Below are positions 1 to 62,684 of a stretch of 64,000 bases of DNA, in pieces; position 1 is the stretch's first letter; each line of letters begins with the position of its first letter. Source of the stretch: Yuukianura sp. NJ FZ-2021 (Eukaryota). The stretch spans positions 4,836,001 through 4,900,000 of the forward strand of contig CM102284.1 in assembly GCA_046563655.1 (NCBI GenBank), in the 5' to 3' direction. The notes under the pieces are model-generated. The model was not told the origin of the DNA and did no database searches. It was given only the letters and a program-made list of their open reading frames with translations. Both the position numbers and the translations under genes were made by a program.

Positions 1-378
1 AATGTAGCCGAGCTAATTGCGCATGGCAAGCAAATTGTGGGCGATCTCAATCGGACTAGACGTTTTGAAAACAAGCCTTTGATTCGTGCGACAGCTTCTG
101 ACGATTTTTCCGATTTCAATCAAAGACTCAAGGACAGAGCAGCAGCACGTCAACCGTCTAGAGCGGCTTACATTCCCAGGGAATCGTTTCAACCGCAGCC
201 TATTGGGCCTATTTCAGTCCCACCCGAAAATTCTGGGGCAAGTCAATTCTTTCCAAAGCAAGACTCGGAGGCTCAAACAGCTCCAATTTTTTCTGCTATG
301 ACTCCAAAACAACCGGAAATTTCCTATTCGCGCCCAGACCGCGCTCCTAATATTCCGCCAAACTCCGACGGAAGGTAG
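1..378 (+). CDS. gag: Gag C-terminal part (partial, frame open from base 1)
   Basis: Frame 1 is open from 1 to TAG 376-378, has a Pro/Ser-rich tail and overlaps the pol frame, which opens after TAA 348-350. Confidence 0.75.
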   Translation, partial: NVAELIAHGKQIVGDLNRTRRFENKPLIRATASDDFSDFNQRLKDRAAARQPSRAAYIPRESFQPQPIGPISVPPENSGASQFFPKQDSEAQTAPIFSAMTPKQPEISYSRPDRAPNIPPNSDGR

Positions 379-3300
379 GACGGGAGCTCCCTATCCTTCC
401 GAAATCGGATTTTTCCAAAGCAGCTCCCACAATCAAAATCAAAATTCGGAATTCCTTTTATTTTGCTCATTTGGATTCGCTATCAACTTATTCGCACATT
501 TCCGCTTCTTTAGCAAAAGAACTCGGAATGATCATTCACAAAGGGCAAATTCAACTAACGATTGGTGACTCAAGTACAATCAGTACTTCCGGAACAGGAG
601 AGTTACATTTCAAAATTTATACGGACGATTACATTCACACAGTCCACATTCTCCAGTCTCCGCCTTTTCCAATTATTCTCGGACTTGACTTTATTCGGAA
701 ATATCATTTGGTCCCGGATTTTCATGACGGTACATTTTCTATTCTCGGAACTAAAACAAGAGGTCGACTCGAATACTATTTTCAAAACCGTGAGTACTTA
801 TGTGCATTGCTCGGTCTCAGTGACGCGCAAACTGAGGAACTGAAGCATTTGACCGATAGTTTTCCAGCACTTTTCTCTTCTCAGTTAGGCCAAACTGATT
901 GGGTGAAGTGTGAGTTGACACCGTCTCCCGGACCTCCTATTTCCTCTAAACCCTATCCTGTTAGTCCTTTCAAGCGACAGCTCATTTCAGACAACATTTC
1001 GGAAATGTTGAAATTGGGCGTCATTGAACCCTCTGATTCTGAGTGGGCCTCCCCTGTATATATGCACACTCGTGACAAAGGTCAGTCATGGAGATTTACT
1101 TTGGATTTACGGAAAGTAAATGCTCGGCTACCTCATGATCCTTTTCCTATTCCTAGATTAGATTATTTATTTCATAACTTAGGTCAAGCTAAATTTCTTT
1201 CGGTGATTGATCTTAAGAAGGGCTACTGGCAAGTGGCCATGGACCCACAGAGCGCAAAGTACACCGCTTTCATTTGTCATGAGGGTAAATTTCAATTTAC
1301 GCGCATGCCCTTTGGTTTAAAGTCGGCCCCTTCTTTATTTCAACGCCTTGTAAATAAAATTTTAGGCACAGCGCGAGGACGCTTTGCTGACGGTTACATA
1401 GACGATATAATCGTCTATTCTAGTTCCTGGAAGGAACATTTAGAGCATCTCAAATACGTTTTTGAGAGATTAAATGCGGCTGGTCTCACTGTAAATATGC
1501 AGAAATGTGAGTTCGGTAAAACTACCCTCAAGTACTTAGGGTACATTGTTTCTCCAAATGGAATTGAGAGAGATCCGGATAAGATTTCCGCTGTTTCTGA
1601 TTTTCCCAGGCCGACGACACCCAAACAAGTTCGTCAGTTTTTAGGTCTTTGTTCTTGGTATCGACAGTTTGTCGAAAAATTTTCGGAGCTCAGCGAGCCC
1701 CTGAACCGGTTATTACATAAGGATGTTCCTTTTGTTTGGTCAGACGACCAGGAATCTGCATTTTTAAGGCTCAGAGCAGCCATTTGTTCGGATGATTTGG
1801 TTTTGGCTTTCCCGGATTTTTCCAAAGAGTTTATTATTCGGACGGACGCGTCACGAGTTGGAGTATCCGCGGTTTTAGCCCAAGAAATTAACGGATTTGA
1901 GAGACCCATTGCATTTGCGAGCCGCTCTTTAAATAACGCTGAGAAGAATTACGGTTCCAGCGAAATTGAATGTGTCGGTATTTTATTTGCTTTAAAGAAA
2001 TTTGAACATTACATTGACGGTCAAAGATTTCGGCTTGAGACCGACAACAAAGCTTTGGTTTGGTTGGACAAAATGAAAGACGTAAACAGCAAGTTTACTC
2101 GTTGGGCCCTTCGTATTCAAGATTTTCAGCCCATTATTACGCATTGTCCTGGCAAACTTAACGTTGTTGCTGATGCCCTGTCACGTGCTCCCGTGGGAGA
2201 AAGTGAGGATTGTGAAGATCACCGCGAAAAATTAAATTTTCCATTAAATTGTTCTTCACCCGCCATTTTTCTTTCATTGACGCGCGAAATTTCATTGGAG
2301 ACGCTCAAAGAAGAGCAAAGTAAAGATTTAGAAGTCCAAGCACTGCTTACGGACACTGGAAAGGATTTCGTAGTCGACGACGGAATTCTTTACCGTTTGG
2401 GGAAATACTCCGGAAAGCTTCCCTTCATTCCATCATCTTTACGTTCTCAAGTTTTGAGCTATTTCCATGATAGACCGGAAGCAGGTCACATGGGCTTTCG
2501 TAAAACGCTGTACCGTCTTTTGCGTCGCGTCTTTTGGTTCGGAATGCACGAAGACATTTACAAATTTGTTCAGTCTTGCGACATTTGTCAGCGGATTAAA
2601 AATCCTACTTCTAAACCGGTTGGTCAACTTCAAAGTGTTCAAACCAGAGGTCCTTGGGACATGCTGGCTCTAGATCTGATTGGTCCCCTTACGAAAACTC
2701 AACGTCAAAATACTTTCTTGCTCGTTGTCACTGATCATTTTACAAAATGGGTAGAATTATTCCCAATTCGAGAAGCTACGGCTCCTATGATCATTAAAAA
2801 AGTCGAGCAAGAAATTTTCTGTCGTTTCGGCCGTCCTAGAGCCTTGCTAAGCGATAACGGTTCTCAATTTACTTCGGAGTTATTCAAAAAGCTTTGCAAA
2901 ACATGGAATGTCAAATTGAAGTACACCACTACTTATCATCCCCAGGCAAATATCACTGAGCGCGTAAATCGTAACGTCATTGCTATTCTTCGCGCCTACG
3001 TCGCGAGAAAACACAGCAAATGGGATGAAAATTTACCGGAAGTCGCCATGGCTTTACGCACTGCTATTTCGGATTCTACCGGTTTTAGTCCTTCTATGCT
3101 CAATTTTGGTCGTGAACTTTCGACTCCCTTTGATTTAGCGCTAGACGACTCTGACAGCGATGATTTTGCTGAGTGGACGCAGTACCAACTCACGTTGATT
3201 GAACGGCTTTTTAAAGTTTACCGTTTGGCTAGAGAGAACATAGAAAAAGCGCAAGCGTCGCAGGCTAAATACTACAACAAGCACCGTCGTTCTGATGCGT

Positions 3301-3614
3301 TTCAAATTGGCGATTTGGTACTTTTGCGTACTCATGAGAAGTCTGACAAAGCCAAGGGTTACATGAAAAAGTTCGCATTTAAGTGGGAAGGCCCTTACAT
3401 GGTTTTTGAAAAGGTTACGGATTTAGTTTATGGCCTGAAATTTTGCGATTCTGACGAGGAAATTGGTCGTCATAACATTGTGAATCTAAAACGCTACTTT
3501 TCAAGGCCAGGAACAGTCATTTCAGCGCCTTTGCCGCCTTCTAAGATCCCTAAATCAAAGCCTGAGCCTGTCATTAGCAATTACAATCTGCGCAGTCGTG
3601 GTACACTCAATTGA
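351..3614 (+). CDS. pol: Pol polyprotein (aspartic protease, RT, RNase H, integrase), probably reached by -1 frameshift
   Basis: Protease region (HLDSLST...IILGLDF), RT YIDD, RNase H TDAS, integrase HHCC (H..GHMG..CDIC), DDE core (LDL..SDNG..ER) and GPY/F motif (WEGPY). No stops or frameshifts. Confidence 0.95.
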   Translation, partial: YSAKLRRKVGRELPILPKSDFSKAAPTIKIKIRNSFYFAHLDSLSTYSHISASLAKELGMIIHKGQIQLTIGDSSTISTSGTGELHFKIYTDDYIHTVHILQSPPFPIILGLDFIRKYHLVPDFHDGTFSILGTKTRGRLEYYFQNREYLCALLGLSDAQTEELKHLTDSFPALFSSQLGQTDWVKCELTPSPGPPISSKPYPVSPFKRQLISDNISEMLKLGVIEPSDSEWASPVYMHTRDKGQSWRFTLDLRKVNARLPHDPFPIPRLDYLFHNLGQAKFLSVIDLKKGYWQVAMDPQSAKYTAFICHEGKFQFTRMPFGLKSAPSLFQRLVNKILGTARGRFADGYIDDIIVYSSSWKEHLEHLKYVFERLNAAGLTVNMQKCEFGKTTLKYLGYIVSPNGIERDPDKISAVSDFPRPTTPKQVRQFLGLCSWYRQFVEKFSELSEPLNRLLHKDVPFVWSDDQESAFLRLRAAICSDDLVLAFPDFSKEFIIRTDASRVGVSAVLAQEINGFERPIAFASRSLNNAEKNYGSSEIECVGILFALKKFEHYIDGQRFRLETDNKALVWLDKMKDVNSKFTRWALRIQDFQPIITHCPGKLNVVADALSRAPVGESEDCEDHREKLNFPLNCSSPAIFLSLTREISLETLKEEQSKDLEVQALLTDTGKDFVVDDGILYRLGKYSGKLPFIPSSLRSQVLSYFHDRPEAGHMGFRKTLYRLLRRVFWFGMHEDIYKFVQSCDICQRIKNPTSKPVGQLQSVQTRGPWDMLALDLIGPLTKTQRQNTFLLVVTDHFTKWVELFPIREATAPMIIKKVEQEIFCRFGRPRALLSDNGSQFTSELFKKLCKTWNVKLKYTTTYHPQANITERVNRNVIAILRAYVARKHSKWDENLPEVAMALRTAISDSTGFSPSMLNFGRELSTPFDLALDDSDSDDFAEWTQYQLTLIERLFKVYRLARENIEKAQASQAKYYNKHRRSDAFQIGDLVLLRTHEKSDKAKGYMKKFAFKWEGPYMVFEKVTDLVYGLKFCDSDEEIGRHNIVNLKRYFSRPGTVISAPLPPSKIPKSKPEPVISNYNLRSRGTLN

Positions 3615-12032: not shown

Positions 12033-13812
12033 CTAATTGTTTTCCAGGGCTGGACAAGTTTTACAAGATTTTGGACAGTAGATGGTCATGTAGTCTCGGT
12101 TGTCCGGATGAGTACATTCGCCATCACCAGCCCACTGATCACACATTTCAGAGTAGTTTGCACAATTTTTGTCTAAAACATATTTAGAAAAGGGTTTTCT
12201 TGTAGAATTTTTGAAATTTTTTGAAACTTTTGAAAAAATTTCACTTTAAGAACTTTTTGTGACTAACCTGTAGCACTCGGACAAGACTCTCGACAGGTCA
12301 AGCCGATCCACGCTGAGCTGCAGGCTCCAAGTCTTGCAAATTCTTTGCAGTTTGGGTGAAAGTCAAACTTCATTCGGTTGACCTCCGGGGTCACTGCGGG
12401 TATTGGGTTGGAGCAGTTGTAGAACGTGTTGATTTTTAATTTGTCAAGCTGTAAAAGTATGATTGTGATTAAGATTAAGCAGGAGAAGCTTAGTTAGGCT
12501 AACTACGATTAACGTATATAGTTATACGTTAGATTAGGTTTACTTCGCTTAAATTTTGTCGTTGACCCATTTGACCTCCTTTGTCTTCCTTTTTATTTGG
12601 AAATATCGTTTGAAGTCCCTCTTTCTTTGCAAAAGCGAACTGATTGTAGTGCGTAATTGACGCAATGTCGTAAGGTCCTGCGTAGTTGGCCCTTGGAGGC
12701 GGAATTTTGAAAAAGTTGTGTTTTCCATCTAAAATCGAAAAATTTCAAATTTTAGTGAAAGGAAGATCAACGGAGGTCAACGGTCACTGACCTTCTGAAA
12801 CATTGTAGAAGGAAATCCTAACATGATCGTCTCTGTCCATGCGACACTGCTCATGCTCAAATCCAATCACATGCATAAATTCGTGCAATACGCTGCCAGG
12901 GGTCATGCAGTCATCGTTCAAGGTCACCAACTGCTCCCCTCCAAGCCGTCCCACATAGCTCCCACAAGGCTTTGACCTTGGCGTTTTGGTGATGAATACA
13001 AAGTCTTTGTGAAACAACTTTGTGATGAAATTGATACAGGAAACTTGTCTCAAACGTGCAATTGCTCTTGCAATTGTTGCCCGTTCGGTCAGTCCTGAAA
13101 GCAAGCCAAAACTGTTTTCAATGGAAAGTTGACCTCAGTCACTACAGGTCAAAGGTCATCTCAAAAACATGTTTTAGAATTCGGTGTTACCAAATTGAAA
13201 ATCGACAAAGTACGGAACATAACCGTTGTCCCATTTGTTGAACGTGGGTTGATCTTTAGATCTTTGAGTTCCTAAAAGAAGAAATTCAATTTTCAAAACT
13301 TTCCAAATTTTGAAAAACTTCCAATTGAATTTCAAATAAAATTCTTATACCATGAAGATCATTCCGTAGGATTTCACAGTTCTGAAAAACTTTCGTCGTT
13401 GCCGACTCCTCGTGTGCTAAAAACGAAAACCTTTCTTTTGTTATAGTCCTTACTATTTTACATACAATCCAAAAATGTAAATTTTCAAAATACTTACCAA
13501 AAAATGTTCGAGCATTTTGAAAGTCTTGTGGGTTGAGTGGTTCTCCAGGAAGATTTATCTAGAGTATCATTGAACCGAATAATACATAAAATGAAGAACA
13601 AAAGCCGAGAACCCGTACGAACCAACCATTTTTTGAAAAAAAAAATCAAAATTCGTAAATTTTGTAACCTCGGTTAAGTCTGATTTCCGCTCCGACAGAG
13701 CATCTCTACCAGCACTACACACTTTGAAAGCACTGTTCCAGAACAAAAAAGCTACTAAAATGTGCTCGAGCTTCAAAATTTTAGAAATTAGTGAAAGTGC
13801 TACTGGACCCAT
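12033..13812 (-). CDS. Secreted astacin (M12A) zinc metalloprotease with C-terminal ShK-like domains, multi-exon
   Basis: Signal peptide in exon 1, propeptide GEPLNPQDF, KWDNGYVPY, zinc motif HEFMHVIGFEHEQCRMDRD, Met-turn region YDIASITHY, and C-terminal CANYSEMCDQWAGDGEC...YMTIYCPKSCKTC. Confidence 0.9.
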
Positions 13813-18044: not shown

Positions 18045-19042
18045 TTAGATTCCGTTAGAGCCGATGAGGTAAGCCGTTAAAACAAATCCAATTGCAGAGA
18101 AAAGTCCAACAAAGAGGCCAAACCAGCCCATGAGAGCTATGATCAGTCGATGTGTTCCAAAAATTTGATGAAAACAGCCACGCGTGTGCAGAAAGTAAGT
18201 AGAATTGGGATGGTTTGGTAAACAAAGGAACCCGCATTCCATGGAATTATGAAGGTCATCTGCTGATGTACTAAGGTTACTTGGGCTGGAAGACTTGATG
18301 CTGGGCTGACCTTTGACATTTGACAGCTTGCAGCAACTTCTGGGTACTTTGAGACTCGTTCGGCCAAATTCAACGTCTTGCCAGTCCATGAAACTGTTTA
18401 CACCACAACACTGTTTCAAAATGATTAAAACTAATTTCAATTTGACAATTAAGTTACAATAAGGAATGATTGTTTACCTGACTAGTTTGCTGTAGATTGT
18501 CGATAAGGTCAACAACGTTCCTCCGTACCACTTTTCTTCTGGATTCGTCTTCATATTGTTGCATTAGAGTAAACATGTTGCGTTTGGCCACGGACATGTC
18601 AAGGGTGAAAGCACTTCCAGATGCAGTAAAAGTGACGAGAACAATGAATCCCAGAATGGTGCAATAAGTCATCCAGAGGTAAGCTTTCTTCTTGTTAAAA
18701 AGTGCAAAGAATCCCAATATCGAATTTGAAATTATCACGGCTGTAAAAATTATAAAAAATCAAAGTTAAGAGTAAGTTGATATTTAAAAAAAAACGAAAA
18801 ATATTTGAAACCTTACAGCCGACGGTGTAAAAAGCGACACGCATTCTCCTTGTGAGATTCAAATGAAGTTCTGGAACGATTTTTTTCTCTAGAAGATTCC
18901 TCAAAAGTAGAGGAACTATGATCATTAATATTCCAGAAAGAATTGAAACGATATGAAAAATTATAAATCCGAGTCGTATTCTCCTCTGGCGACTTGGCGA
19001 ATTAGTCGATGATGTCGGATGACTTTTCGTACTACCTGGCAT
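18045..19042 (-). CDS. Tetraspanin family protein (3 exons)
   Basis: Four hydrophobic segments; large extracellular loop with CCG, PRSCC and GC cysteines. Confidence 0.85.
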
Positions 19043-19673
19043 GCCTAAACTGAACCGATTTCTATTGACGATGAGTTAAAACTAGAAATACTCTTAATTT
19101 AAACGAAATTACAACTCGCGAAATGTTTTTCAATCTTATTCCGGAAGCTTCGGATAAAGTGATGCGAAAGCGAAGATTATAAATATTTGCAATTTTAAGC
19201 TAAATCCTGTTGTTATGAAGAACTCAACTAAAAGTGGCATTTTTGCAGATTTTCAAAGTGAAAATAGGTTAGGTTAGGTTAACCTAACCTAACAAAATAA
19301 ACCAGAAACTGCAAAATAAAATAAAACCACAACGAAAATTTCAGTTCTACTACTTTGATTAGTGAATTACTATCTTATTTTCTTATTTCGAACAAAAAAA
19401 AATCATCATCGTGATGATAATACAATAAGTAACAAATCGCTTGACTCTAATAATTGAGAACAAAAATGTTTTAGTTAGTAGTTCGATTGTTGTATTGTAA
19501 TCAACCCTCTCATCAGTCGAGCTATGCCAGAACGTAAATACGGTTGTGTCTGTCTCATGTTATTAGTAGCCCTGCCTGCCCTGTCACCTAAAGACTACAA
19601 TATAATAATGTTGAGATTCGAACTTCGTCCAGAAGAGTGTCGAGTGTATATGAAGAAGTGTTAGTATTTCAGC

Positions 19674-20645
19674 TCACCACATTGAATACTCAGCATCGTC
19701 GCTTCCAAAGGTTAAGAAGAAGCCTAATATTGTAAGGTAGACTACAATATTTGCTCCCATTGTGAACCAGCAGGCTGACGCGGTGATCTAAACAGAAAAG
19801 TCAAAGCAGAACCCTTGCTTTTTATAGATGCACAAACCAGAACGGAACACAAAAGCCACCAAAGCAAATTAAACGAGTGGTTCTTACCACTGGGTCTGTA
19901 AAAGGGTGACGAGCGAGAACGATTGGTAACCCGAATGACGAAATTACTATTCCAATTGTAAGAAATATGGCCAATTCTTGACAGGAATTAGAAGCGCTGC
20001 CCATGCCAATTGAATTATAGCGTTTCGAGAGGATGAATGGAATAGGTGACATCATGTAAAACAATACGACAAAGAATGAATACCAACTGCAAACATAAAA
20101 CAGTAATTTAGGCAATGACGTAGATATAATGTCGCCGAGAACTTTTGAGTCATGATGAAACTCACTTTGCATCTTCTTTACCCTCTTTTCCTCCAGTGGC
20201 ACAACCGACGATGAGCAACGTCATCCCAACAGATCCGAAAAATGCCAGTCCTACCAAGCTAAAATACCGAACAGTATACACATGAATAACATTGTTCTCT
20301 CAATGAAATGAAATTCGTAAGTTAGTAAATAACTTACGCTGCCATGTTGGTAATCATCATTATGAATTTGAATTTAGTATGTTTGTAGGCGAGCCAGCCA
20401 AGTTACGAATTGGTTTTCGGAGCGGGTGAAGAAATCGAACAGTCAATCCGACAGTTTCACAACAAACGAAGTAGCAGCAACAGGAAGTATGGTGAGACCG
20501 TGAAAGTAAATGTCCAAGTCCATCATTGTAGAAATAAATAGTTTAAAGAAATTCGATAATCAATTTCCGTCAAGGTATTACGTAAATGAGTCATCTTAAA
20601 ATCAATGATACTCTTCTTCGTTTCGTTACCTTTGAGTCCTGCCAT
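19674..20645 (-). CDS. LEPROT: LEPROT/OB-RGRP (Vps55 family) membrane protein
   Basis: Exons 20645-20630 (MAGLK), [20338], 20258-20166 ([20 protein letters not shown]), 20086-19888 ([39 protein letters not shown]) and 19787-19674 ([28 protein letters not shown]). The 5' exon structure is ambiguous (see findings). Confidence 0.92.
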
Positions 20646-22013
20646 GGCTTTACTTTGTTTCAAGTGATTTACGAAACTCCGAATCCAGCAACAAAAGTAG
20701 GTCCGGAAACTGTTAATTGGTCTAATTTGGCAGTGACTAACTCTGTCTGATTAATGTTGACTGAATTGGCGCTGTTTAATTTCCCTATCTCATTTTTATC
20801 TCGCTACTTGTCACAGTTTTCTAAACAGTTTCATTTAATTTTTTGTTGTTATGTATTCCCTTGCAGCTTTTCTCCACCCTCCTGTTTTTAGCACGGGGGA
20901 CGAGTTCACGAGTTCAGCGAATCCAACCAGCTGCCTGCAAAATTAATTTTGCGAATTACGGCAACAATGCACAGAATGCGGAACTAACGTGAGTTGTGTG
21001 CCATAATAATCAATAATGTATTTCTGTTTAAAATTTTAATCTTTGTAAATCACGTTTATTCTTCCTCTTGAGAGTTAATGAGACTACAGCTCATTCTAAG
21101 CAAAGATAAGCACGTCTTGTTTTGTTTGAACTGAAGTAGATACCATAGGCATTTTCTCAATCAGATTTTTAAAATCCGAAATAAAATTCTTTTTTCTTCT
21201 ATAAAAACAGTTTTCGAATAGTAAAAAAAGCTAATCTTACGACTAATACAAAGAGAATAATAATCAACCTAAATCAAAGAAAAAGAAATTGCAATGTAAA
21301 GTGTCAGAAAATAGCATTCATTTATAGAATTTGAGCTACTGTGCTAACTCTACTGTGGTAATCCTACTCAGGTTGGAATTTTTATATTATTTGCATATTT
21401 TTCGAACTTTTAAAACTACAAAGATTTAATTAGGTTTGAAATTTGTAAAGCACTAGGGAAAATAGAAAAAATCAGTGATACTATAGATCTTACTTGTGTA
21501 AGACCACTTATCGTGGGTACAATGAAAAAATGAATGAAAATTACAGCATTTACTCGAATAAATAAATAAAAATGTGATCGAAAAAAAGACGTAAAATCAA
21601 GTGTGTTTTTGATAAAAGTTAGAACAGTCTCGATGGACTGTCAACTGCATGCTGTTGCCCTGTGGCAGCATAACTCTAGTAAAATTTTTTGATGTGTAAT
21701 GGCATGGCAACGTGGGATGACAAGTACAAAGAAGTTGGTGTTTTCTAAAACGTCAGTCATTGCACACAGCATCATTTTGTCCTACGTGTTTTTAGCCGAC
21801 ACAAAGATTTGTCTTCACTTTTTGGTGTTCATTCGGAGAGGTCAGTCATTCTCTCTGTCAGGTCAGTTCAATAGTCTTCTAGTTTTTGAAAGTCATATTG
21901 GTGTATACGCACAAGGAAGTAGAGTATCCACGGGTTGGAATTGGATTTGAGTCAGTGGCAGTCATTCGATTTCTGGACAAAGTCACATATTCGTATCAGG
22001 ATCAAAGTCAGAA

Positions 22014-25630
<3,617 letters not shown>

Positions 25631-27370: not shown

Positions 27371-29498
27371 TTACAAGTGGACGAACAGGACGATGGGACA
27401 ATGGTCAGATCCGAAAACGTCTTTTCGGATGGTACTCTCAACGAGGGATTCCTTCAGTTTCTCAGACAGCAGGAAATAATCCAGTCTCCATCCAACGTTT
27501 TTGGAACGGGCGTTTCCTATGTACGTCCAGAAAGTATACGCCTTCTCATCCGGATACAAAGAGCGGAAAGAGTCAACCAACTTCAAGCTATTCAGTAGCT
27601 CAGTGAATCCATCTCGCTCTTCCTGGGTAAACCCTGCCGTGTTCGTATTCGTCTTTGGATTGGCAAGGTCTGTAAAGAGGGGGACAAAATTGGTGAATTC
27701 ACGGTATCATTTAAGGGCGTGTCAGTTCAATACGTTGCTCAACTCACCAATGGACTCATGCGCAACATTAAAGTCACCGGTGACAATGACTGGTTTCTTC
27801 TCGTCTAGCGTTTTGATGTAATCTTTGAAAACCCGATCCCAGGTTTGACGCTCTCCATTTGTCACACGCGGAGGATATCCTCTTGGATGCTTGTCATCTT
27901 TCACTCCACGTCCACCGTTAGGAACATCTAATGAATCAACATAAAGAGACATGATGAGTTTTAGAACTTGTAACTCAGCGGGAGTGCAGATTTTTAGATT
28001 TGGATTTGATGAAAAGTACTTACAGACATTCAACAAGTAAAATTTTTCAAATTCAGTCACGATTAGTCGACCTTCTTTGTTGAAGTTGCGTTTTATCTTT
28101 TTGTCCTCTTCTGAATCATCGTCTCCAACTGGAATGCCATAAGAGACACTCTCGGGCTTAACTTTAGAGAAAGTTGCCACTCCATTGTGTCCATTAGCTT
28201 CTTCTGCATAACACCAGTAGGTGTGCGGGTAGTCCGGAATGGATTTCACCTCTGAGGGTTTCGTTTTCTCAGAACATTTGATTTCTTGTAAGCATATGAC
28301 GTCGGGGTTCTCACGTTTCAAATATTCAAGGCCATCTTTCTGAAAAACAAAAGAATTGACATGTAAATTCAATTTGATTATAAATTTTATGCGATTTGAT
28401 AAATAAAAAAGTGTTATGTTAAGTTACCTTGACCCAAGCCCTAATGCCAGCAACGTTCCAACAAGAAATTTTGAAATTCCATGAGTCATCAGCCGGAGTT
28501 TTCTTGTCGCAAGTGAAATCCAAGGAATCGTAATCAGTTTTAGTGGGATTCATCAGATTTGATTCCCCTTTTGAGCCTGAAGAGGAGCCCGGCTTTTCTT
28601 TTTTCTTCGTTTTCTCCTCGTCTTTCTCTTCTTCTTCATCGTCACTACCACTCTTTTCTTCGGCTTCTTCTGATTTCGGACTTTCAGCCTCCTCAGTCTT
28701 ATCGTCCTCCTCTTCTACGTCGTCTTTTCCTGAACTCTTTTTGTCCTTGTCCAGAACTGGTGCTGCTGCTGCTGGTTTGGTTTCTTTAACTTCGTCTTCG
28801 GTAGTTCCCTCACCTTCTTCGTCAGACCTCTTCTTCTCAGGCTCATCGGTTTCCATATCGTCCTCACTGTTATCCTTCTCTGCTGCTTCCAGTTTAGCCT
28901 TCTTATTTCCATTCGTCGTTTCTTTCGGCTTCCGACCTCGCTTCTTTGGAGCTGGAGCAGCTTGTCGCTTCGGTTGAGACCTTGTTGGTGGCTTTTCTTT
29001 CTTGAGTTTCTTGTTGCTCTTCTTCTTTCCGTACTCACTGCCGGAAGTATCACCAGAACCAGAGGCCTCATCCTCCGACACCTCTTCGGAGCTCGCCTTC
29101 TCTTCTTCATCAGAGGACTCTGCTGGTCGCTTTCTTTTGCCATTAGAACTGGCTGCAGTTGCAGCCTTTGGTTTCCGTCCACGTTTCTTTGGGCTCAACT
29201 GAGCTTTACCGGCGGGCTTCCGACCACGTTTTGCAGGAGCTTTCTTTGGTGACGGTTTACCCTTCTTCTTCTTTTTTCCGTACTCACTTCCAGAACTTTC
29301 CGCCTCAAAATCCGACCCGGAATCACCACCAACATCTTCCGGTGAACTGGGAGCATCATCTCTGAAGTCTTCTTCGGATCCCTCATCTTCGACGTAACTC
29401 TTGCGTGCTCCTCGGGTCGTCCGTGGAGCCTTATCCGTTGGTTTTGTACTACCGCTCTCCTTATTAGCTGCCTTCGTTCCACCGCGTCCACGACCCAT
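27371..29498 (-). CDS. APEX1: AP endonuclease (ExoIII/APE1 family, Rrp1-like) with long charged N-terminal extension
   Basis: [61 protein letters not shown]. Confidence 0.95.
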
Positions 29499-31265
29499 GT
29501 TAATAATACAACTGAAAAGAAATCATAAATGAGTGAAAGAATAGCAAACCAGTCATTAATAAGCATATATGAGTAACATGCTGAGATAATGCCAAGGTTG
29601 TAACTTACAGTCGCAGTTGTGTAGCAAGGTGTATTTCTAGATCCCAGTTGGTGCAAAACGAAGTACTGGCAACTGCGTTGTATCGTTTTACCGGAACCAC
29701 CGGTTGGAGTGAGAGTAAACTTGTGAATGAGTTGTGTTTCGGGCGGGCAAAAATGGAAGAGTAAGACTTCGAGAGCAATCGACACCGAATCAAACGAAGA
29801 ATTCGATCCCGAATTGTTTTAACTTGACAGGCTAAAAGTAATAGTAAAACCTCCGGTTTAAATTAGGAATTAATTAAACTAAATATAAATAATTATGAAC
29901 TAATTGTGAATTTGATTTACAACTAATCTATCACCGAAGATGTCCAATTCCCCACGAAACAAGCAAGGAGGGTTCACACAGCAAACGGCAATAACCAACA
30001 AGGCTTTTCTTCCAACCCAAAATGCAGACGCAGAGGCAGACAAGTGCGAGTGTAGTGTAATGCATTTTGGCTGGGTTGACTTCGGTGGCGGAAGAGTCAA
30101 CTAATTCGGTTGATCATAAGGATGCCATATTCTAATTGTACCCAGCATAAAATTATTTATTTAAATACAAATTATACGCGTCAAAAAATATTAAACCACA
30201 GAAGGGGACTTATGAGCTTTAGAAAAGTAAGAATTGCTTAAATTGCTGTTTTTTCTCCAATTTTTGGACCTATAAATTTTTTCTCTCCCACTTACAGTGA
30301 GTCATAAAAAGGCTACAACACTTCCACCGGAAATTGATTTTTAAATCCTTCTTTCACGGGTAAAGAAAAAAAGCAAAGCTTTCAAATCTAATATACTAGC
30401 CGAAGCTGGTTCATGTAGAAGATGCTGCCAGTACTTTCACTTTTTCAATTTTAATTAACAATTGGCTGTGAAAGCACGATTTAAAAATCAACTTCCGGGG
30501 AAAGCGTTGCAGCCATTTTATGGATCTCTGTACATCATGTTAGGTGGAAGTATCCGGAAGTATCTATTTACATCCATTTTATCTAAGCATTTCTTCCGGG
30601 TAAAATCGGAGGAAATATACCATCCACATGAATATGCACTTGACGAAATGTCAAAAAGGGGATATCCAGCAACACTGTTGCGTTATCATTTCAAAGTCCG
30701 TATTGAAGTCATCCTCTGCTGACTATGATGTCAATACAACTGGGAAGTTTAATATAAATATTTATGGTTTTTGTTCCTCACCTTCTCGGGTATTGTGTTA
30801 CAATTATGAAGCTTATCCTGTACGTCAACCAGCTAGTCAAATCAATGCAAGAAAAAAAAAAGATAAAAAGACGCTTTTGTTGTTCTTTTGAATCAACACA
30901 ATCCACGCATGCGTAATTGTAATTAGAAAATGTACCCACCCACCCATGTTAAGCGTTTAGGTAGTTTATGTTTATGATGTTCTAATTGCTGAACCGATTT
31001 TTTTCTTCTAATTTTAGCCTATTTTTGAGGGAAATATACACATATAGACGACCTTGGTTCGAAACTTGGAAAATTTTGGACGTTGCGTTGGTCCCCGGAC
31101 TGCACTACTGCAACTGAGCAATTTTATTTCGATTTGGGCACCCTTCGAGAGGAACTTTGAAAGACTAGACTATTGTTCACTTGGAAGGCCATAAACACTT
31201 ATTGCTGGCAATAATCAGAGGAGAAGTTTCAATTTCCATTGAAGGAAGACTATTGACTACTGCTA

Positions 31266-37457: not shown

Positions 37458-38045
37458 CTTAGATCTTGATGAACGAAATCCGCCACCACAAAATGGAATT
37501 CGATAGAATTCCTATGTAATCTTTTTACCGATAGGCTGGAATCGTATTCGTAACGAGGCCCACAGTCCTCCGACAGTTGGACACCAAGAAACTATAATAC
37601 TCTAGCAATACTAATTGGCAATTAATTAGTTTCTTTAGGTCAGCAAATGCGGAGGTGTATGAACTGGAGTAAAATCTGCACAGCAGATCATATGATCAAA
37701 CATAAACAAAAGAACCGTGTTTTAGGCAGGCGTGGCTTGGGTGTTGCTTATCCATCCGAACTTCGGTGGTATTGGTCATGTCACTGCCAACAAATTGTTA
37801 ATTAGTAACATCAATTTAATCGTCAGTTCTTAAAACTATTAATTCACACCTTAAATTATTCTGTCGTTAGTAAAAGCGAATAAAATGAAAGAAAAGGGAA
37901 AGTAGATGAAAGTTTGCAGTTGCTATGACGACCGAATGTTCCTTGGAGCAATCTATTCTTTGCAAACTTTCTAAAACAATGATCCTACTCTCTCCCACAA
38001 AGTGAAACGAACAGAAATTGTGATCAGTAGAGTTAGCCAAGTCAT

Positions 38046-38549
38046 ATGGGCTGCTGCTGTTGCAAGAAACAAAATCGTGGTGGACGTTTCAATAGACCAA
38101 GATTCGGATCCAAAGCCCTGGAAGAAAAACGACAAGAAATCATGGCCTACAACTCCACGCACACCGTTCATCAAGTACTGGATCGAGCCGATTTCGAAGA
38201 ACAACTGAAATCCGCCGGTTCGAAGCTCGTCGTGGTCGACTTCTTTGCCACTTGGTGCGGACCCTGCAAGATGATCGGACCAGAAATGGAAAAAATGGCT
38301 GACGGAATGGCGGACGTCATTTTCTTGAAAGTAGACGTGGATCATTTGGAAGAACTTGCAGCCGAACACAACATCACTGTCATGCCGACGTTCATCGCTT
38401 TCTTGGAGGGCAAACGTGTCGGGGACTTTTCTGGAGCCAACGTCGAGAAATTGAAGGCTTTCGTCAATGAGAAGAACAAGTTGGAGCGACAACCTGTCAC
38501 TGCCAAGGTCACGGAGGAACCTGCTGCCCCCGTCCCAGTTAAAGACTGA
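38046..38549 (+). CDS. Thioredoxin with N-terminal extension (intronless)
   Basis: LVVVDFFATWCGPCKMIGP, FLKVDVD and MPTF cis-Pro motif. Confidence 0.93.
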   Translation: MGCCCCKKQNRGGRFNRPRFGSKALEEKRQEIMAYNSTHTVHQVLDRADFEEQLKSAGSKLVVVDFFATWCGPCKMIGPEMEKMADGMADVIFLKVDVDHLEELAAEHNITVMPTFIAFLEGKRVGDFSGANVEKLKAFVNEKNKLERQPVTAKVTEEPAAPVPVKD

Positions 38550-43072: not shown

Positions 43073-44334
43073 TTAATATTTGTAACTCTGTTCAAGCCTC
43101 TTCTTGGTATGTTCATACGCTGACACTGGAACAAGATTTTGGCAAGTCTTGGCTTGTGGTCCGATTGGTGCCACCATCACGCTGTCGTCTGGGTGTATAA
43201 AATAAGGTATCGATTGCCTGTAGATTTGCTTCTTCGTTTCAATTTCAGGAATTAAGACACGGTGAACCTAAAAATCAACCGTGCAAGTTAGTCAACGACA
43301 AAATTGTTACTAATCGAAATCACTTTTGAATCTTACCGTCGCTGGATATCTTCCTCCAGACCAAAATTTTAGTAAATCTCCAGTGTTAAGAAGAATCGTT
43401 CCAGGAACTGGCGTTGCTGGTACCCATACTCCATCAGCTCTTAGAACCTAAAATTTTTCCAGAAAAATTAGAAACGATTAAATCCGAAATGGTGCAACTC
43501 AAATTCTAGAAATTGCAGAAACAATTGTATAGTTTTATACTTCGAGTCCGCCAATGTCATCTTGGAACAGTAGCGTGATTGTCCCATAATCTGAATGCGG
43601 AGAGCACCGAATGCTGCCCGGTTCAACATTTTCCGGAATGGGAGGGTAGAATATTGACCGAAAAGTTGTGTACGAGCTAACAGTTGGATCAGTGAATGCT
43701 TTTGAAACGTTATTGAAGTATTCCACATCTTCAAGCTGCAGCGCCCTTGCTAACAGTCTATGGATGCTGGCAATTAGTGGATGACATGCGCTGGCCAATC
43801 GGACCAAAGCTGACACAAATCCAGGACTTTCTGGAATCAGTTCTTGAACTTCGAGCTTTCCTTTTATGTTGATGGAAACGTCGAAACTCTCTCGCAATTC
43901 GGTCGTATACTTCCCTGGTTCAAGTCTTTAAAAATGTGTAACGAATTTCTCAAAATAAATTTTTAATAGCATTGTTCTGAAATAGTTTGACCTTTGACCT
44001 TACATTTCTCTGCTTGGTGAAGTATATCCATAGATATTCGGGAACTGCTTGACATACTTTTCTTTCAGCTCAGTTGGAAGCGTAAAAAATTCTAAACTTT
44101 TCGCAAAGGCATCGTCTACCTTGGTATCAAAAATTGAATTTTTCAAAAATTTTAGAATTCTCTTCCAAAATTATTTTTAAAACTTACAAGTTCTTGAGGT
44201 ACTCCATGATTTTTCAAGTAGATGAAGCCGATTGAAGACAGCACTTGGTCCACTCTATTGGAAACTGAAATCCACTCTTCCTCAGAGGGGTCACAGAGCA
44301 GTGACCCAATGTCAACTACTGGAATGCTCTCCAT
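43073..44334 (-). CDS. 2-oxoglutarate/Fe(II) dioxygenase (DIOX_N + 2OG-FeII_Oxy, IPNS-fold family), 5 exons
   Basis: IPVVDIG, IGFIYLKNHGV, HSDYGTITLLFQD..GGLEV, ATVHRV, RQS. Confidence 0.92.
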
Positions 44335-55372: not shown

Positions 55373-57745
55373 GCTGGAGGAGCGTTCAGCGTTGTTGGAA
55401 ATGCTGCGTTAAAACTTCCTGTTCCAGCTGCTACAGCCTTGTTCCAAACGCTCCTCTTTTTCACCATTGTCCATTGAATATTCAGTGCCTGGAGAGAAAG
55501 TCGCTTGGAGCGACAGCTTTGTTGTACTTCAACTTTCTCCTGAGAGTGACTTTGACAATTCCGAAGAAAAATAAGCTCCAGTTCTAGACCACACGACGAC
55601 TAGGTTTTCCAATACTAAGGGAAATGCAGGAGCTCCGACGCACTCCAGGTCCACTCCAGAGTTTGATGTTTGTTAGGTTAAGTTTAGGTTGGTTAGGCCA
55701 ACCTAGCCTGTTTTTTCAGTTGTAATTTTGCAACCATTCCCCTCTCCAGTTCTGCTGGATAAATAATCAAGCTCTGCCCAAATCAACTTTCATTTCACTC
55801 CAAAGCTAAACCCATGGCTATGTAGGAGGGTGAAAGCATTTTGAATATCATGAAAAAAGCTTTTTTTAACAAAGAAATGGTTTTCTAACATCTTTTCTTT
55901 CTGAAAAATGGTTTTCATTCATTTTTTTTTAAAGTTTCCATTAGAAAAGTACGATCAACCTAAATGAAAAAGTGATGATGCGGAGAAAGCTATTCACTCT
56001 CAGCCTTGATAAACTTCTGATGACATTTCGCCAATTGACCTTTCAAAAATGGAGCACAAAAGGCGCCTTTGAGGTATTTCCACCGTTGAGTCACGGTCAC
56101 GGTGGAAAAAGCAAGCCACGGTTTTTTTTTTTTTGAAAAACTAAATGAAAATTTTAGACAACATGTTATGTCAGAGGCGATTTGAATCAGAACGGCTGTC
56201 GTCACTTCACTTTGCAACACTCTTTTACATCAAACTTTTAACAAAACTTTCAGTAAACTGCTGAAAACGAGCGTAGATTGGTGAAACTGGAGAAAGTTTT
56301 AGTCAATTACTTATTGCAACAAAGTGAAAAAAAACTTTCAGTTGAAAAATTTAAAATTTGTCGAAATTTTGGGAAAAACTGAGCCCTACTTCTGGAATCA
56401 ATCGCTTATGATGATGCCAATTTAGAAAAAAAGAACTCTATAAATATAAATTTTTTTAAAAAAGAGTTCTTAAAAAGCGTCATCTATTTTTAGCAAACCT
56501 GTGCATTTTTCTTGACAAATCAAACAATAACCATAACAAACAGCCTGGAGGTTAAAAAGTTTTAGTCATTAAGCAGATGTAGATACAACGCTTGCAAAAA
56601 TTGTGCGAAAATCTTTCTCCAAAATAATTTTATGCACAACGTAGCACATTTTCGCTAGGTGCTAAATGCCTCCAGGGCGAACCCAATCGTTATGACCATA
56701 TTCAAAGGCTGACATTTGGTTCATGTCATTTTGTTTGTTTCTCCAAGGTCAAATCGTTTCTCAGCGAGACATTTCCATCCTGTCCGCCTTGCTCGCAGTT
56801 TCTGTCTGACTGGATCTTGGCCAAGAATTCTTTACTCCACAGAAGACGAGAATAAACCATCTTCCTACTGCCCTTGTTCCTGAGAAGATCTTTGCACAAA
56901 CGCAACGCTCTACTCAAAATTTTCGACTCCTCTAATAGCCTACACTTCCATTTTCATTTTTTGTGGGCTACAAATCTTTCCTTTGGGAAAGTTATGGTAG
57001 AATGGACGATCTTTCTGCGTTAACTCCCTTCTTCCATAAAACCGAATAACAAAAGTTTCCTCCCTTGCTGTGGCCTTCAGACCTAATAGCACACCATACT
57101 AGAAACCATGGAGGGAAACGCTCCATCTTCTCCTTAATTTCTGCTTGGAATTCTGCAAAATTCTGCTATTCGTGTCGACACTCAACCTCCAGTCGCCTTG
57201 GCTTTGCTTTGCCCTGATCCTCCATCACTCCGAACTTTTTTTGGTCAACCACGCCCTTCCTTCCCACTCAGAACTGTTTTGAATCCTGAACAGTCAAGAT
57301 CTCTCAGTTTCCTTCCACGTTTCTCTTTTTAACCACCAGCGTCCTTCTGTAATCCAAAAATTCAGGGTAAGAATTTCAAATTTGATCATTCCAGGAGAAA
57401 GTGGTTAAGCTGAGAGATGATATTTTGCACAAAAACTTTCAATTTTAGGATAACCTGGATTAAATCTAGGAAAACGTCGAGATTAAGTAGCGTTTTCAGC
57501 TAAAAGTTACCTTTATTCCAAAAAATTTTGAGTAGTTTTGGTTTGCTTTAGCTTCCACTACCTTCAGCGGAATCTGAAAAATCAAACGTATTTTCTTAGC
57601 TTATTAGGCATGCATTGATTGGGTGACCTTGATCATGGTCAAGCGTTAATCCAGTTGACCTTGGCCAGGGTTTTACGAGTCAATCCAGTTATATCAACCT
57701 CACTTCTTAAAATTTTTCAGGGATTTCAATTGCAAGAAAAATAAG

Positions 57746-58624
57746 ATGGAGTGGAAAGTGAGCTTTGCTCTTTGCGTCTTCGTCGCCCTCTGGGGAGAAA
57801 GTTATGGAAACGCTGCAGATCAAATCCAGCGATTGACCGCAAGTCTCAACTTGAAAAACACACTCAGCTTTGGAGACAAGTGTAACTACGAATCGGAGCA
57901 GTCGAGACAAAAGTATATCAAGGAATACTTGGACAAGACCAAGAATATGATGGGAATGGGACCGGGAGGCCCGCCTGGTGGACCAGGAGGCCCACCCGGT
58001 GTACCCGGAGGGCAAGGGGGGCCAGGGGGATTGAATTTGGACCTCAAGAACCCCACAAACGCACAAAGTTCATTGTTCCAGCTCGCACAGCAAGGAGAAA
58101 CTGCTCTAGTGGCCGCACTGGACTCCTTGTCCAAACTGCATGGAAATCTTTGCAACACGAGTCAAAATCTGGCTTGTCTCCCCACGGGTACTTGCGGATG
58201 TGCTGAAAATGACATGTCATCGGGATTCACCGTTTCGTTTGAGCGTGAAGGAAACGCATGCGTCGTCAAAGCTGGAACCAACGCCGTTTGTATGCCAAAG
58301 GAAATGACGTCCGAGGCGATGGACACAAAAGGGGGTCCACCACCACCAATGTTTCGCAGCGCTGCTAGCATGGCCAGTGCAGTGACTTGTCCAGCATCGG
58401 AACGCTGTTTGATCAGGGATAGTGAGGATGAATGTAGCCAGGAGAAAGTCCAAAAGAAAATGGCGGCCGACATGGCAGAGCAGGCGAAATCTGGCAAGTT
58501 GGACTTTGGCAAAACCGCGGGATCGTTGATGGAAGGCCCTTGCGTCTGCGCTGGAACGAATCTTGCAGCGTCCATTTTGGTCATCATTGTTTCCACAGTT
58601 GCATGCGCGACTCGGCTGTTCTAA
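57746..58624 (+). CDS. Secreted/GPI-anchored Cys-rich protein with Gly-Pro repeat, unknown function
   Basis: Signal peptide, GPGGPP repeats, Cys-rich module (CNTSQNLAC...CGC...C) and hydrophobic C-terminal tail; single coding exon. Confidence 0.85.
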   Translation: MEWKVSFALCVFVALWGESYGNAADQIQRLTASLNLKNTLSFGDKCNYESEQSRQKYIKEYLDKTKNMMGMGPGGPPGGPGGPPGVPGGQGGPGGLNLDLKNPTNAQSSLFQLAQQGETALVAALDSLSKLHGNLCNTSQNLACLPTGTCGCAENDMSSGFTVSFEREGNACVVKAGTNAVCMPKEMTSEAMDTKGGPPPPMFRSAASMASAVTCPASERCLIRDSEDECSQEKVQKKMAADMAEQAKSGKLDFGKTAGSLMEGPCVCAGTNLAASILVIIVSTVACATRLF

Positions 58625-60982: not shown

Positions 60983-61707
60983 CAAGAACAAAAACTAAAA
61001 TTAAAATTGTGATTGAATTGTCAAAATTTCCAATTTCCGAAAATTACATACAAGCAAAACCGATTTTCCTAAGAGACGTCAATCGAACAACGTCAAGTAA
61101 ATCTTTACACAGAATCGAAATTACAAGTTTTCACTCAAATTCTCTATCTCCGTGTACTTAGTGAATCTTCCATGTTGATTCAAAACTTAAAGTTGATCAC
61201 GACCTCAACGCTGACCTTGCAGTTGAGATTGTCGTTCGTACATGAAATGAAACCACTCAAAAAGATATTGTGAGACTGCAAAAATAGCGTTACGTCGTTA
61301 ACCCTTAATTAACCACTACTAAAAAATTCCTTATCTGACAATATCACTTCCAAGAACAAGTTTCAACTTCTCAAAAGTAGCAAATACTCAACTTAAGATG
61401 CGTCAGTTCAGTCAGTTCAGTGCAATTTTGAAGTTCATCTGCAGTTTTACCACCCTAATAAACAGCAGCACGACACTACGAGCAATTGGCACTTCAAGTG
61501 GGTATCCGGTGAAAATTTGCAAATTACAAAAAAAGCTACTTTATGCTTGTCTTTCAGGATTTTTCGTATTTTTATGCTAGATAAGCCTCGATTGGATGAC
61601 CTTGGGCAGTTTCACGGGTCACACCCAGTTGACATCAACTTAACTACTAACTTATTTTCACTCTGGCTTAACTTTTTTTCAGGGATTTCAACTGCAATAA
61701 AAATAAG

Positions 61708-62684
61708 ATGGAGTGGAAAGTGAGCTTTGCTCTTTACGTCTTCGTCGCACTCTGGGGAGAAAGTTATGGAAACGCTGCAGATCAAATCCAGCGATTGACC
61801 GGAAGTATCAATTTGAAAAACACGCTCAACTTTGGAGACAAGTGTAACTACCAATCGGAGCAGTCGAGACAAAAGTACATCAAAGAATACTGGGACAAGA
61901 CCAAGAATATGATGGGAATGGGACCGGGAGGCCCGCCTGGTGGACCAGGAGGCCCACCCGGTGTACCCGGAGGGACTTTACGGGGAAAATTTCCTCAAGA
62001 ACCCCACAAACGCACAAAGTTCATTGTTCCAGCTCGCACAGGAAGCTGAAACTACCTTAGTGTCCACATTGGACTTCTTGTCCAAATTACAAGGAAATCT
62101 TTGCAACACGAGTCAAAATCTGGCTTGTCTTCCCGAGGGTACTTGCGGATGTGCTGAAAATGACATGTCATCGGGCTACACCGTTTCGTTTGAGCGTGAA
62201 GGAAACGCATGCGTCGTCAAAGCTGGAACCAACGCTGTTTGTATGTCAAAGGAAATGATGCCCAAAGCGACACAAGGCGGGGGTCCACCACCACCAATGT
62301 TTCGCAACGCTGCTAGCGTCGATAGTGCGGTGACTTGTCCAGCATCGGAACGCTGTTTGATGAAGGACAGTATGGATGAATGTAGCAAGGAGAAAGTCCA
62401 AAAGAAAATTGCGGCCGACATTGCAGAACAGTTGAAATCTGGCAAGTTAAATTTGGGATCGCTGATGGAAGGCCCTTGCGTCTGCGCTGGAACGAATCAA
62501 GGTTACTATTGTAACGTCTTCTTTAAAGTGAACTTGGGTGAATTCATTTTTGAAAATTTTGCTTAAAAATTTAGAGCTCGAGTTACTGCCCAACCTCTTA
62601 AAGACCAACCTTGGAACGAATCTTGCAGCGTCCATTTTGGTCATCACCGTTTCCACAGTGGTCGGCGTGATTCGGCGGTTTTAG
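61708..62684 (+). pseudogene. Disrupted duplicate of the 57746-58624 gene
   Basis: Highly similar to copy 1, but a 30-nt segment is replaced by 19 nt near 61975-61993 (frameshift) and there is a 116-bp insertion with TSD at 62498-62613. Confidence 0.75.
62498..62613. mobile_element. Short non-autonomous DNA transposon (MITE), hAT- or P-like
   Basis: Absent from the paralog; termini CAAGGTT...AACCTTG are inverted; 8-bp TSD GAACGAAT at 62490-62497 and 62614-62621. Confidence 0.8.

Follow-up and report, generated by a model that had tools for sequence, protein, structure and literature searches.

The question raised by this locus is how the first coding exon of a Vps55/LEPROT gene can be joined to the second when the first ends in phase 1 and the second needs two preceding bases, i.e. 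how a deficit of a single base is made good. The gene lies on the minus strand of the window, by which is meant the whole 64,000-nucleotide stretch of springtail DNA that was analysed, and consists of four exons with a candidate single-nucleotide exon counted apart (Table 1). Its product is a member of the Vps55/LEPROT (endospanin) family, and matches the Pfam profile PF04133 over its whole length: exon 2 corresponds to profile positions 1-21, exon 3 to 25-87 and exon 4 to 90-120, out of 120. The named relatives of the protein are arthropod "leptin receptor gene-related" or "overlapping transcript" proteins, the closest of them a spider protein with 58 % identity. The reading favored here, to which a probability of about 0.7 is given, is that this gene is the springtail orthologue of LEPROT/endospanin and that its productive mRNA would be made by splicing in one nucleotide, the C at 20338; from the arrangement of the genomic sequence we infer the use of this C in mRNA.

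Table 1. Positions of the features discussed, in the window and in the related contig L004; slashes mark splice borders.
Feature	Sequence	Position	Strand	Details
Distal first coding exon	window	20645-20630	-	ATGGCAGGACTCAAAG = ATG GCA GGA CTC AAA G; MAGLK + first base of codon 6; donor G/gtaacg
Intron 1a	window	20629-20339	-	291 nt, gtaacg...catggcag
Candidate single-nucleotide exon C	window	20338	-	second base of codon 6 (GCC, Ala); atggcag/C/gtaagt
Intron 1b	window	20337-20259	-	79 nt, gtaagttatttactaac...tattttag
Exon 2	window	20258-20166	-	93 nt; third base of codon 6 + 30 residues + AA; acceptor tattttag/CTTGGTAGG
Exon 3	window	20086-19888	-	199 nt; Pfam Vps55 match, E 1e-14
Exon 4, coding part	window	19787-19674	-	114 nt; stop TGA at 19676-19674
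Proximal in-frame ATG	window	20345-20343	-	caacATGGCAGC/gtaagt; start of rival first exon
Second AG	window	20252-20251	-	8 nt inside exon 2, CTTGGTAG/GA; in-frame MAGLKGLAFF if acceptor for distal exon
Second conserved island, intron 1a	window	20594-20584	-	ATGACTCATTT; also at L004 263-273
Exon 1	L004	199-214		ATGGCAGGACTAAAGG/gtatgt
Intron	L004			419 nt, between exon 1 and exon 2
Candidate 1-nt exon C	L004	483		aaacttttcag/C/gtaagttaatc
Exon 2	L004	from 634		acceptor ttttgcag/CTTGGTAGGACTTGCC
Astacin metalloprotease gene	window	12784-13134	-
Tetraspanin gene	window	18045-19075	-	directly downstream of LEPROT
VCP/TER94 exon	window	22352-22810	+	neighbor of LEPROT
Thioredoxin gene	window	38037-38549	+
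2OG-Fe(II) oxygenase fragment	window	43535-43927	-

In the window and in L004 alike, joining the first exon straight to the second (20630 to 20258 in the window) gives MAGLKAW and then a stop as codon 8. The earlier note had predicted this result of direct splicing, from coordinates (20645-20630 followed by gtaacg; the C at 20338 with tatttactaac; 20258) that are all correct on the minus strand, and joining of the exons confirms it. Placing the C at 20338 between exon 1 and exon 2 leaves the reading frame open, with a protein that starts MAGLKALVGLAF and a coding length of 16+1+93+199+114 = 423 nt, or 141 codons. An exhaustive search was made for internal exons that would restore the frame, with AG before and GT after, a length of 1 mod 3 and no more than 120 nt, introns of at least 40 nt and no stop. 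In the window the search yields nothing but the C at 20338. L004 offers four candidates, of 16, 7, 4 and 1 nt, and the two sequences share just the 1-nt C.

The cag/C/gtaagt of the LEPROT intron is more than a chance occurrence. The motif AGNGTRAGT is found eight times on the two strands of the 64-kb window, three times with C as the single base, and counts in the window give an expectation for AGCGTRAGT of ~0.01 per 371-nt intron. The shorter AGNGT occurs twice in the window intron, the other site lying 16 nt from the donor, and once in that of L004. The donor that follows the C is non-consensus on its exonic side (AGC) and perfect on its intronic side (GTAAGT) in both sequences. The acceptor that precedes it in the window has a weak pyrimidine tract (attaccaacatggcag) in comparison to the acceptors of the eight VCP-gene introns and the other LEPROT acceptors; the corresponding acceptor of L004 (cttttcag) is stronger. 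Some other readings of these signals were tried and set aside. A donor shifted by one base (GG/ta), or an acceptor shifted by one (tta/G), would give MAGLKG and needs borders other than GT-AG; retention of intron 1b reads AAA GCG TAA, a stop; and the TACTAAC behind the donor, considered as a branch site, is only 10 nt from the 5' splice site and is missing in L004.

The comparison with L004 bears most directly on the question. A metagenome scan for relatives returned this one genomic contig with introns together with three intronless contigs (L001-L003), whose N-termini read MAGLKALVSLAFF and MAAGLKSLVLLAFF. L004 comes from a different species and has the same exon-intron layout as the window, the same one-base deficit and the same CAG/C/GTAAGTTA. 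The search for a conserved AG-N-GT in orthologous introns that the earlier note proposed is thus answered in its favor, with the C at 483 of L004, and AG-N-GT is conserved in 1/1 orthologous genomic loci found; two genome-contig scans and one viral-contig scan returned no further such locus. With MAFFT the two introns, of 371 and 419 nt, proved too diverged for the motif to fall into register, and shared words were compared instead. The longest word common to the two introns is the 12-mer CAGCGTAAGTTA, at 20341-20330 in the window and 480-491 in L004, and it spans the C; shared words of at least 12 nt appear in 31 of 2000 mononucleotide shuffles.

The coding sequence on either side of the divergent introns has been kept under constraint. 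Exon 1 is identical at 14 of 16 positions in the window and L004, both differences being synonymous. The opening 13 codons of exon 2 have six synonymous and no non-synonymous changes; over the whole of exon 2 the codon differences are 14 synonymous and 4 non-synonymous. The 5' flanks of the two sequences have no word as long as 8 nt in common. Since change is exclusively synonymous in the MAGLK exon and in the part of exon 2 that precedes the internal Met, both are evidently translated in the family frame, and therefore the two must be joined in frame.

Protein relatives indicate what the joined N-terminus should look like. A word-seeded protein search with exon 3 as the query gave four close relatives. 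One of them, P0005, has 140 residues and carries the same clade-specific GGKxGxED insertion as the window protein; its uninterrupted ORF on a contig of 986 nt marks it as transcript-like. P0005 starts MAGLKALVGLAF, identical to the window protein as read through the one-base exon. A second search with P0005 as the query produced 62 relatives at E 1e-10 or better, of which 34 have an N-terminus of the form MAG[LIM][KR]xL[VIM]xLAF with equal spacing. The codon GCC completed by the C specifies Ala, which is also the residue most often found at position 6, in 26 of these 34. The earlier claim that inclusion of the C yields a family-type N-terminus is borne out by these sequences and by P0005. Unrelated N-terminal peptides are present in 2/62 relatives (P0006, MSSSLAK-LV..., and P0009, MNMIGK-LV...), and on their evidence alternative first exons do occur in the LEPROT family. 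Two members of the clusters nearest to the window, P0004 and P0190, start at the internal Met, on contigs where no ORF reaches MAGLK.

A one-base frame problem is also the expected product of a homopolymer or indel error, and a 1-bp assembly error at the junction was among the alternatives named at the outset; a frame-broken pseudogene copy would be the corresponding form of decay. Either kind of artefact is now scarcely credible. Five DNA runs from two samples carry the stretch, and four of them were compared over 19300-20900 (X1-X3 from one sample, X4 from the other). Contigs of all four runs span 20204-20351, and those of X1, X2 and X3 reach the distal exon as well; the covering contigs have no inserted or missing letters at 20255-20262, 20330-20345 or 20628-20645, and none of the four runs has a variant at the C at 20338. 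It is true that the four runs are all represented by Logan contigs and that the best-matching run may be the source sample of the window itself. However, the run contigs are not mere copies of the window because they differ from it at other sites: X3 has a synonymous GCA to GCT change at 20640 in exon 1, and X4 has three substitutions and a 7-nt insertion inside intron 1b that leave the donor unchanged. The absence of an indel at the splice junctions in runs from two samples and studies makes the 1-bp assembly error suggested for 20255-20262 unlikely, and the identical deficit in another species argues in the same direction. Decay is opposed by the excess of synonymous over non-synonymous differences in exon 2 given above and by the run variants in coding exons, which, read in this frame, are all synonymous (20640 in exon 1, 20252 and 20234 in exon 2, and the three in exon 3 at 20029, 20017 and 19984).

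The remaining explanations accept the DNA as it stands and dispense with the one-base exon. Transcription might start inside intron 1a and translation at the ATG at 20345 (or at 20357/20360), so that ...ATGGCAGC/gtaagt is spliced to exon 2 to give MAA-LVGLAF and a protein of 137 residues; in that case the distal MAGLK exon would be non-productive or an upstream ORF, or the two arrangements could co-exist. This proximal ATG is in frame, has A at -3 and G at +4 (caacATGG) and shares the strong donor; in L004, too, an in-frame ATG precedes the C by 24 nt; P0006 and P0009 attest unrelated first exons; and genome-based models of other arthropods often begin in this proximal style, e.g. the spider MNVFNIA-LV. 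However, the peptides that would result differ, MAA- in the window and METNGNFSA- in L004, where the ATG comes directly after a TGA and has T at -3. No protein among the 62 relatives starts with MAALV, and P0005, from the clade of the window gene, has the start already given; it would also be left unexplained why the distal 16-nt exon retains MAGLK, with synonymous change only, amid diverged flanks. A proximal start as the whole explanation is therefore unlikely: the peptide of the ATG GCA GC exon that the earlier note offered as an alternative is not conserved in L004, although its ATG may co-exist as a start. Less probable still is a route that the earlier note does not mention, in which the distal exon is spliced straight to an AG lying 8 nt into exon 2 (CTTGGTAG/GACTGG); it would give 137 residues in frame with no microexon. 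Such an intron is canonical GT-AG, in frame and free of stops in the window and in L004. Against it, the spacing that it predicts (Lys, one residue, LAF) is found in 0/62 relatives; the codons TTG GTA that it skips are conserved and are part of the family LV..LAF motif; the conserved island CAGCGTAAGTTA is not accounted for; and the first AG, 8 nt upstream, sits behind a good T-rich tract and would normally win, as the established scanning behavior in 3' splice site choice favors the first AG. The comparative evidence of L004 and the protein relatives thus supports the single-nucleotide microexon over the two alternatives that the earlier note had named, the assembly error and the proximal first exon.

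Under the preferred reading, inclusion of the C at 20338, the 16-nt start exon (MAGLK + G) would be joined to the lone C and the C to exon 2 at 20258, creating codon 6 as GCC (Ala) and a 140-residue protein starting MAGLKALVGLAF. The 291-nt and 79-nt GT-AG introns would presumably be removed sequentially, in either order, by intron definition; whichever intron leaves first, the C would stay attached to an exon of normal size for the second reaction. The eight VCP introns in the window are roughly 60-120 nt with varied donors, and introns as short as these in this genome fit with intron definition. Exons are normally recognized by contacts at both ends, and an exon of one base would therefore represent the lower limit for the spliceosome; the perfect intronic donor GTAAGT may compensate for the missing exonic contacts. 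If the C were skipped, an ORF of 7 codons would result, MAGLKAW and a premature stop, so that the C would be obligatory for the full-length protein. The C at 20338 could in principle act as an on/off point. Drosophila recursive splice sites are zero-nucleotide exons in very long introns and leave no base in the mRNA. The springtail site is like these in having an acceptor beside a strong GTAAGT donor within an intron, and in its proposed stepwise removal; here, however, a single base separates AG from GT and would be kept, and the two introns measure 291 and 79 nt.

One-base exons have been described elsewhere. Land-plant VPS55 and APC11 are reported to have 1-nt exons (Yu et al. 2022, Nat Commun, PMC8831610), and the case of plant VPS55 that the earlier note mentioned is thus a real one. 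In that paper the VPS55 exon has conserved GTRAGT donors and is supported by RNA-seq and RT-PCR; intron retention or a second gene copy also yields a form that lacks the exon, and "13 amino acids missing in Arabidopsis" are mentioned (PMC8831610). The springtail and plant genes belong to the same Pfam family, and share a single-base exon, in the springtail a putative one, near the N-terminus that is missing from annotations and is followed by a strong donor (GTRAGT in plants, GTAAGT here); in both, without this base the N-terminal peptide and the first transmembrane helix are lost or altered. They differ in that the host here is a hexapod and not a plant, and in that the plant exon is known from RNA and the springtail exon is predicted from sequence. 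The Arabidopsis APC11 exon, likewise cited in the earlier note, is published as a constitutive single-nucleotide spliceosomal exon demonstrated with GFP fusions (Guo & Liu 2015, PMC4674806). It too is a 1-nt exon between GT-AG introns that was missed by annotation, as the springtail exon would be; however, the gene is unrelated, and the APC11 case is a plant one with splicing shown experimentally.

A parallel in the form of the deficit is found in the Fusarium CYP621A P450 genes, where a 1-nt exon is described with a motif conserved in 24 genes and with SRA reads that confirm the splice (Nelson & Syed 2026, PMC12940212). There also a phase-1 exon faces a phase-2 exon, one base short, with an AG-N-GT conserved in the intron of every orthologue; unlike the springtail case this is an unrelated gene of a fungus, and 24 genes and reads compare with one orthologous genomic locus here. 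By the authors' count only one example preceded it, and none in a fungus (PMC12940212). Among animals, a single-base-pair exon is described in the placozoan mitochondrial cox1 gene (PMC5436844), an organellar case with self-splicing or trans-splicing introns, whereas the springtail exon is a nuclear spliceosomal candidate. Full-text literature searches found neither a nuclear 1-nt exon in animals nor a 1-nt exon linked to LEPROT. The springtail LEPROT exon would thus apparently be the first one-base exon of an animal nuclear gene.

Such an example would show that animal annotations lose genuine N-termini through one-base exons, and its place among short, intron-defined introns would open the mechanism to tests in arthropod cell systems. 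Because the Vps55/LEPROT family is shared with the land-plant 1-nt exon, common descent versus convergence becomes a question that can be tested. It is possible, though doubtful, that the one-base exon arose long ago and is spread widely among the LEPROT genes of hexapods or arthropods, in a form that annotation pipelines have no means of representing. The family N-terminus is present in 4/21 of the relatives on contigs of at least 100 kb versus 30/41 of the others, which are mostly short, transcript-like contigs. The RefSeq models of the wasps Nasonia, Leptopilina and Microplitis and of the flea Ctenocephalides start at an internal Met, and the wasp-like transcript assemblies P0017 and P0020 start MAGLKALV; several genome models begin with what appears to be a translated 3' splice site ending in ...S-LV. 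This split of the N-terminus by contig type would fit a wider 1-nt exon and would also fit a simple failure to find the 16-nt first exon. Were the exon widespread, the presence of another 1-nt exon near the start of the land-plant family members would suggest either very deep ancestry or a shared constraint favoring it.

A number of minor features of the locus and of its relatives may be added. The word ATGACTCATTT is the second-longest word common to the two introns, at intron position 36 in the window and 49 in L004, i.e. about equally far from the exon 1 donor; it and the 12-mer around the C are short islands in introns that otherwise do not align. It holds the palindrome ATGACTCAT, which we take to be an AP-1/bZIP-type site, and the island could be a conserved intronic enhancer or splicing element. 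At the other end of the gene, the P0004 and P0187 gene calls run past the position of the window TGA stop (...YSMWWALEA...), and P0188, on a contig of equal length, ends ...YSMW; the P0004/P0187 contig was probably also translated with TGA as Trp. All three of these calls begin at the internal Met or slightly before it, and not at MAGLK.

The neighboring VCP/TER94 exon is 95 % identical to that of Orchesella cincta, 93 % to those of Orchesella dallaii and Allacma fusca and 89 % to that of Folsomia candida; all other named matches are below 88 %, and the four that rank higher by bit score have only 63-79 % identity. This exon accordingly places the window in the Collembola, i.e. among hexapod animals. 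The other neighbors listed in Table 1 (tetraspanin, astacin metalloprotease, thioredoxin and the oxygenase fragment) are of kinds usual in animals. Elsewhere in the window, an uninterrupted ORF of 1087 residues at 351-3614 (+) has reverse transcriptase, RNase H, integrase zinc-binding and integrase core domains, and looks like an intact Ty3/gypsy-type retrotransposon pol. An AP-endonuclease-type gene (Exo_endo_phos) at 27371-29522 (-) is preceded by a Lys/Glu/Ser-rich exon of 367 residues (28419-29522), a layout similar to that of Drosophila Rrp1. Two tandem gene copies at 57659-58624 and 61672-62566 (+) encode a signal-peptide-like, Gly/Pro-rich, Cys-containing protein with no Pfam match, which looks like a lineage-specific duplicated secreted protein. 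The 3' flank of LEPROT has a small palindrome of the arthropod telomere unit (TTAGGTTAGGTTAACCTAACCTAACCTA) at 19265-19292. Some contigs of runs X1, X3 and X4 diverge from the window at 19304, with an identical loose end, and there is a 5-nt deletion at 19340, which suggests a structural polymorphism near 19304.
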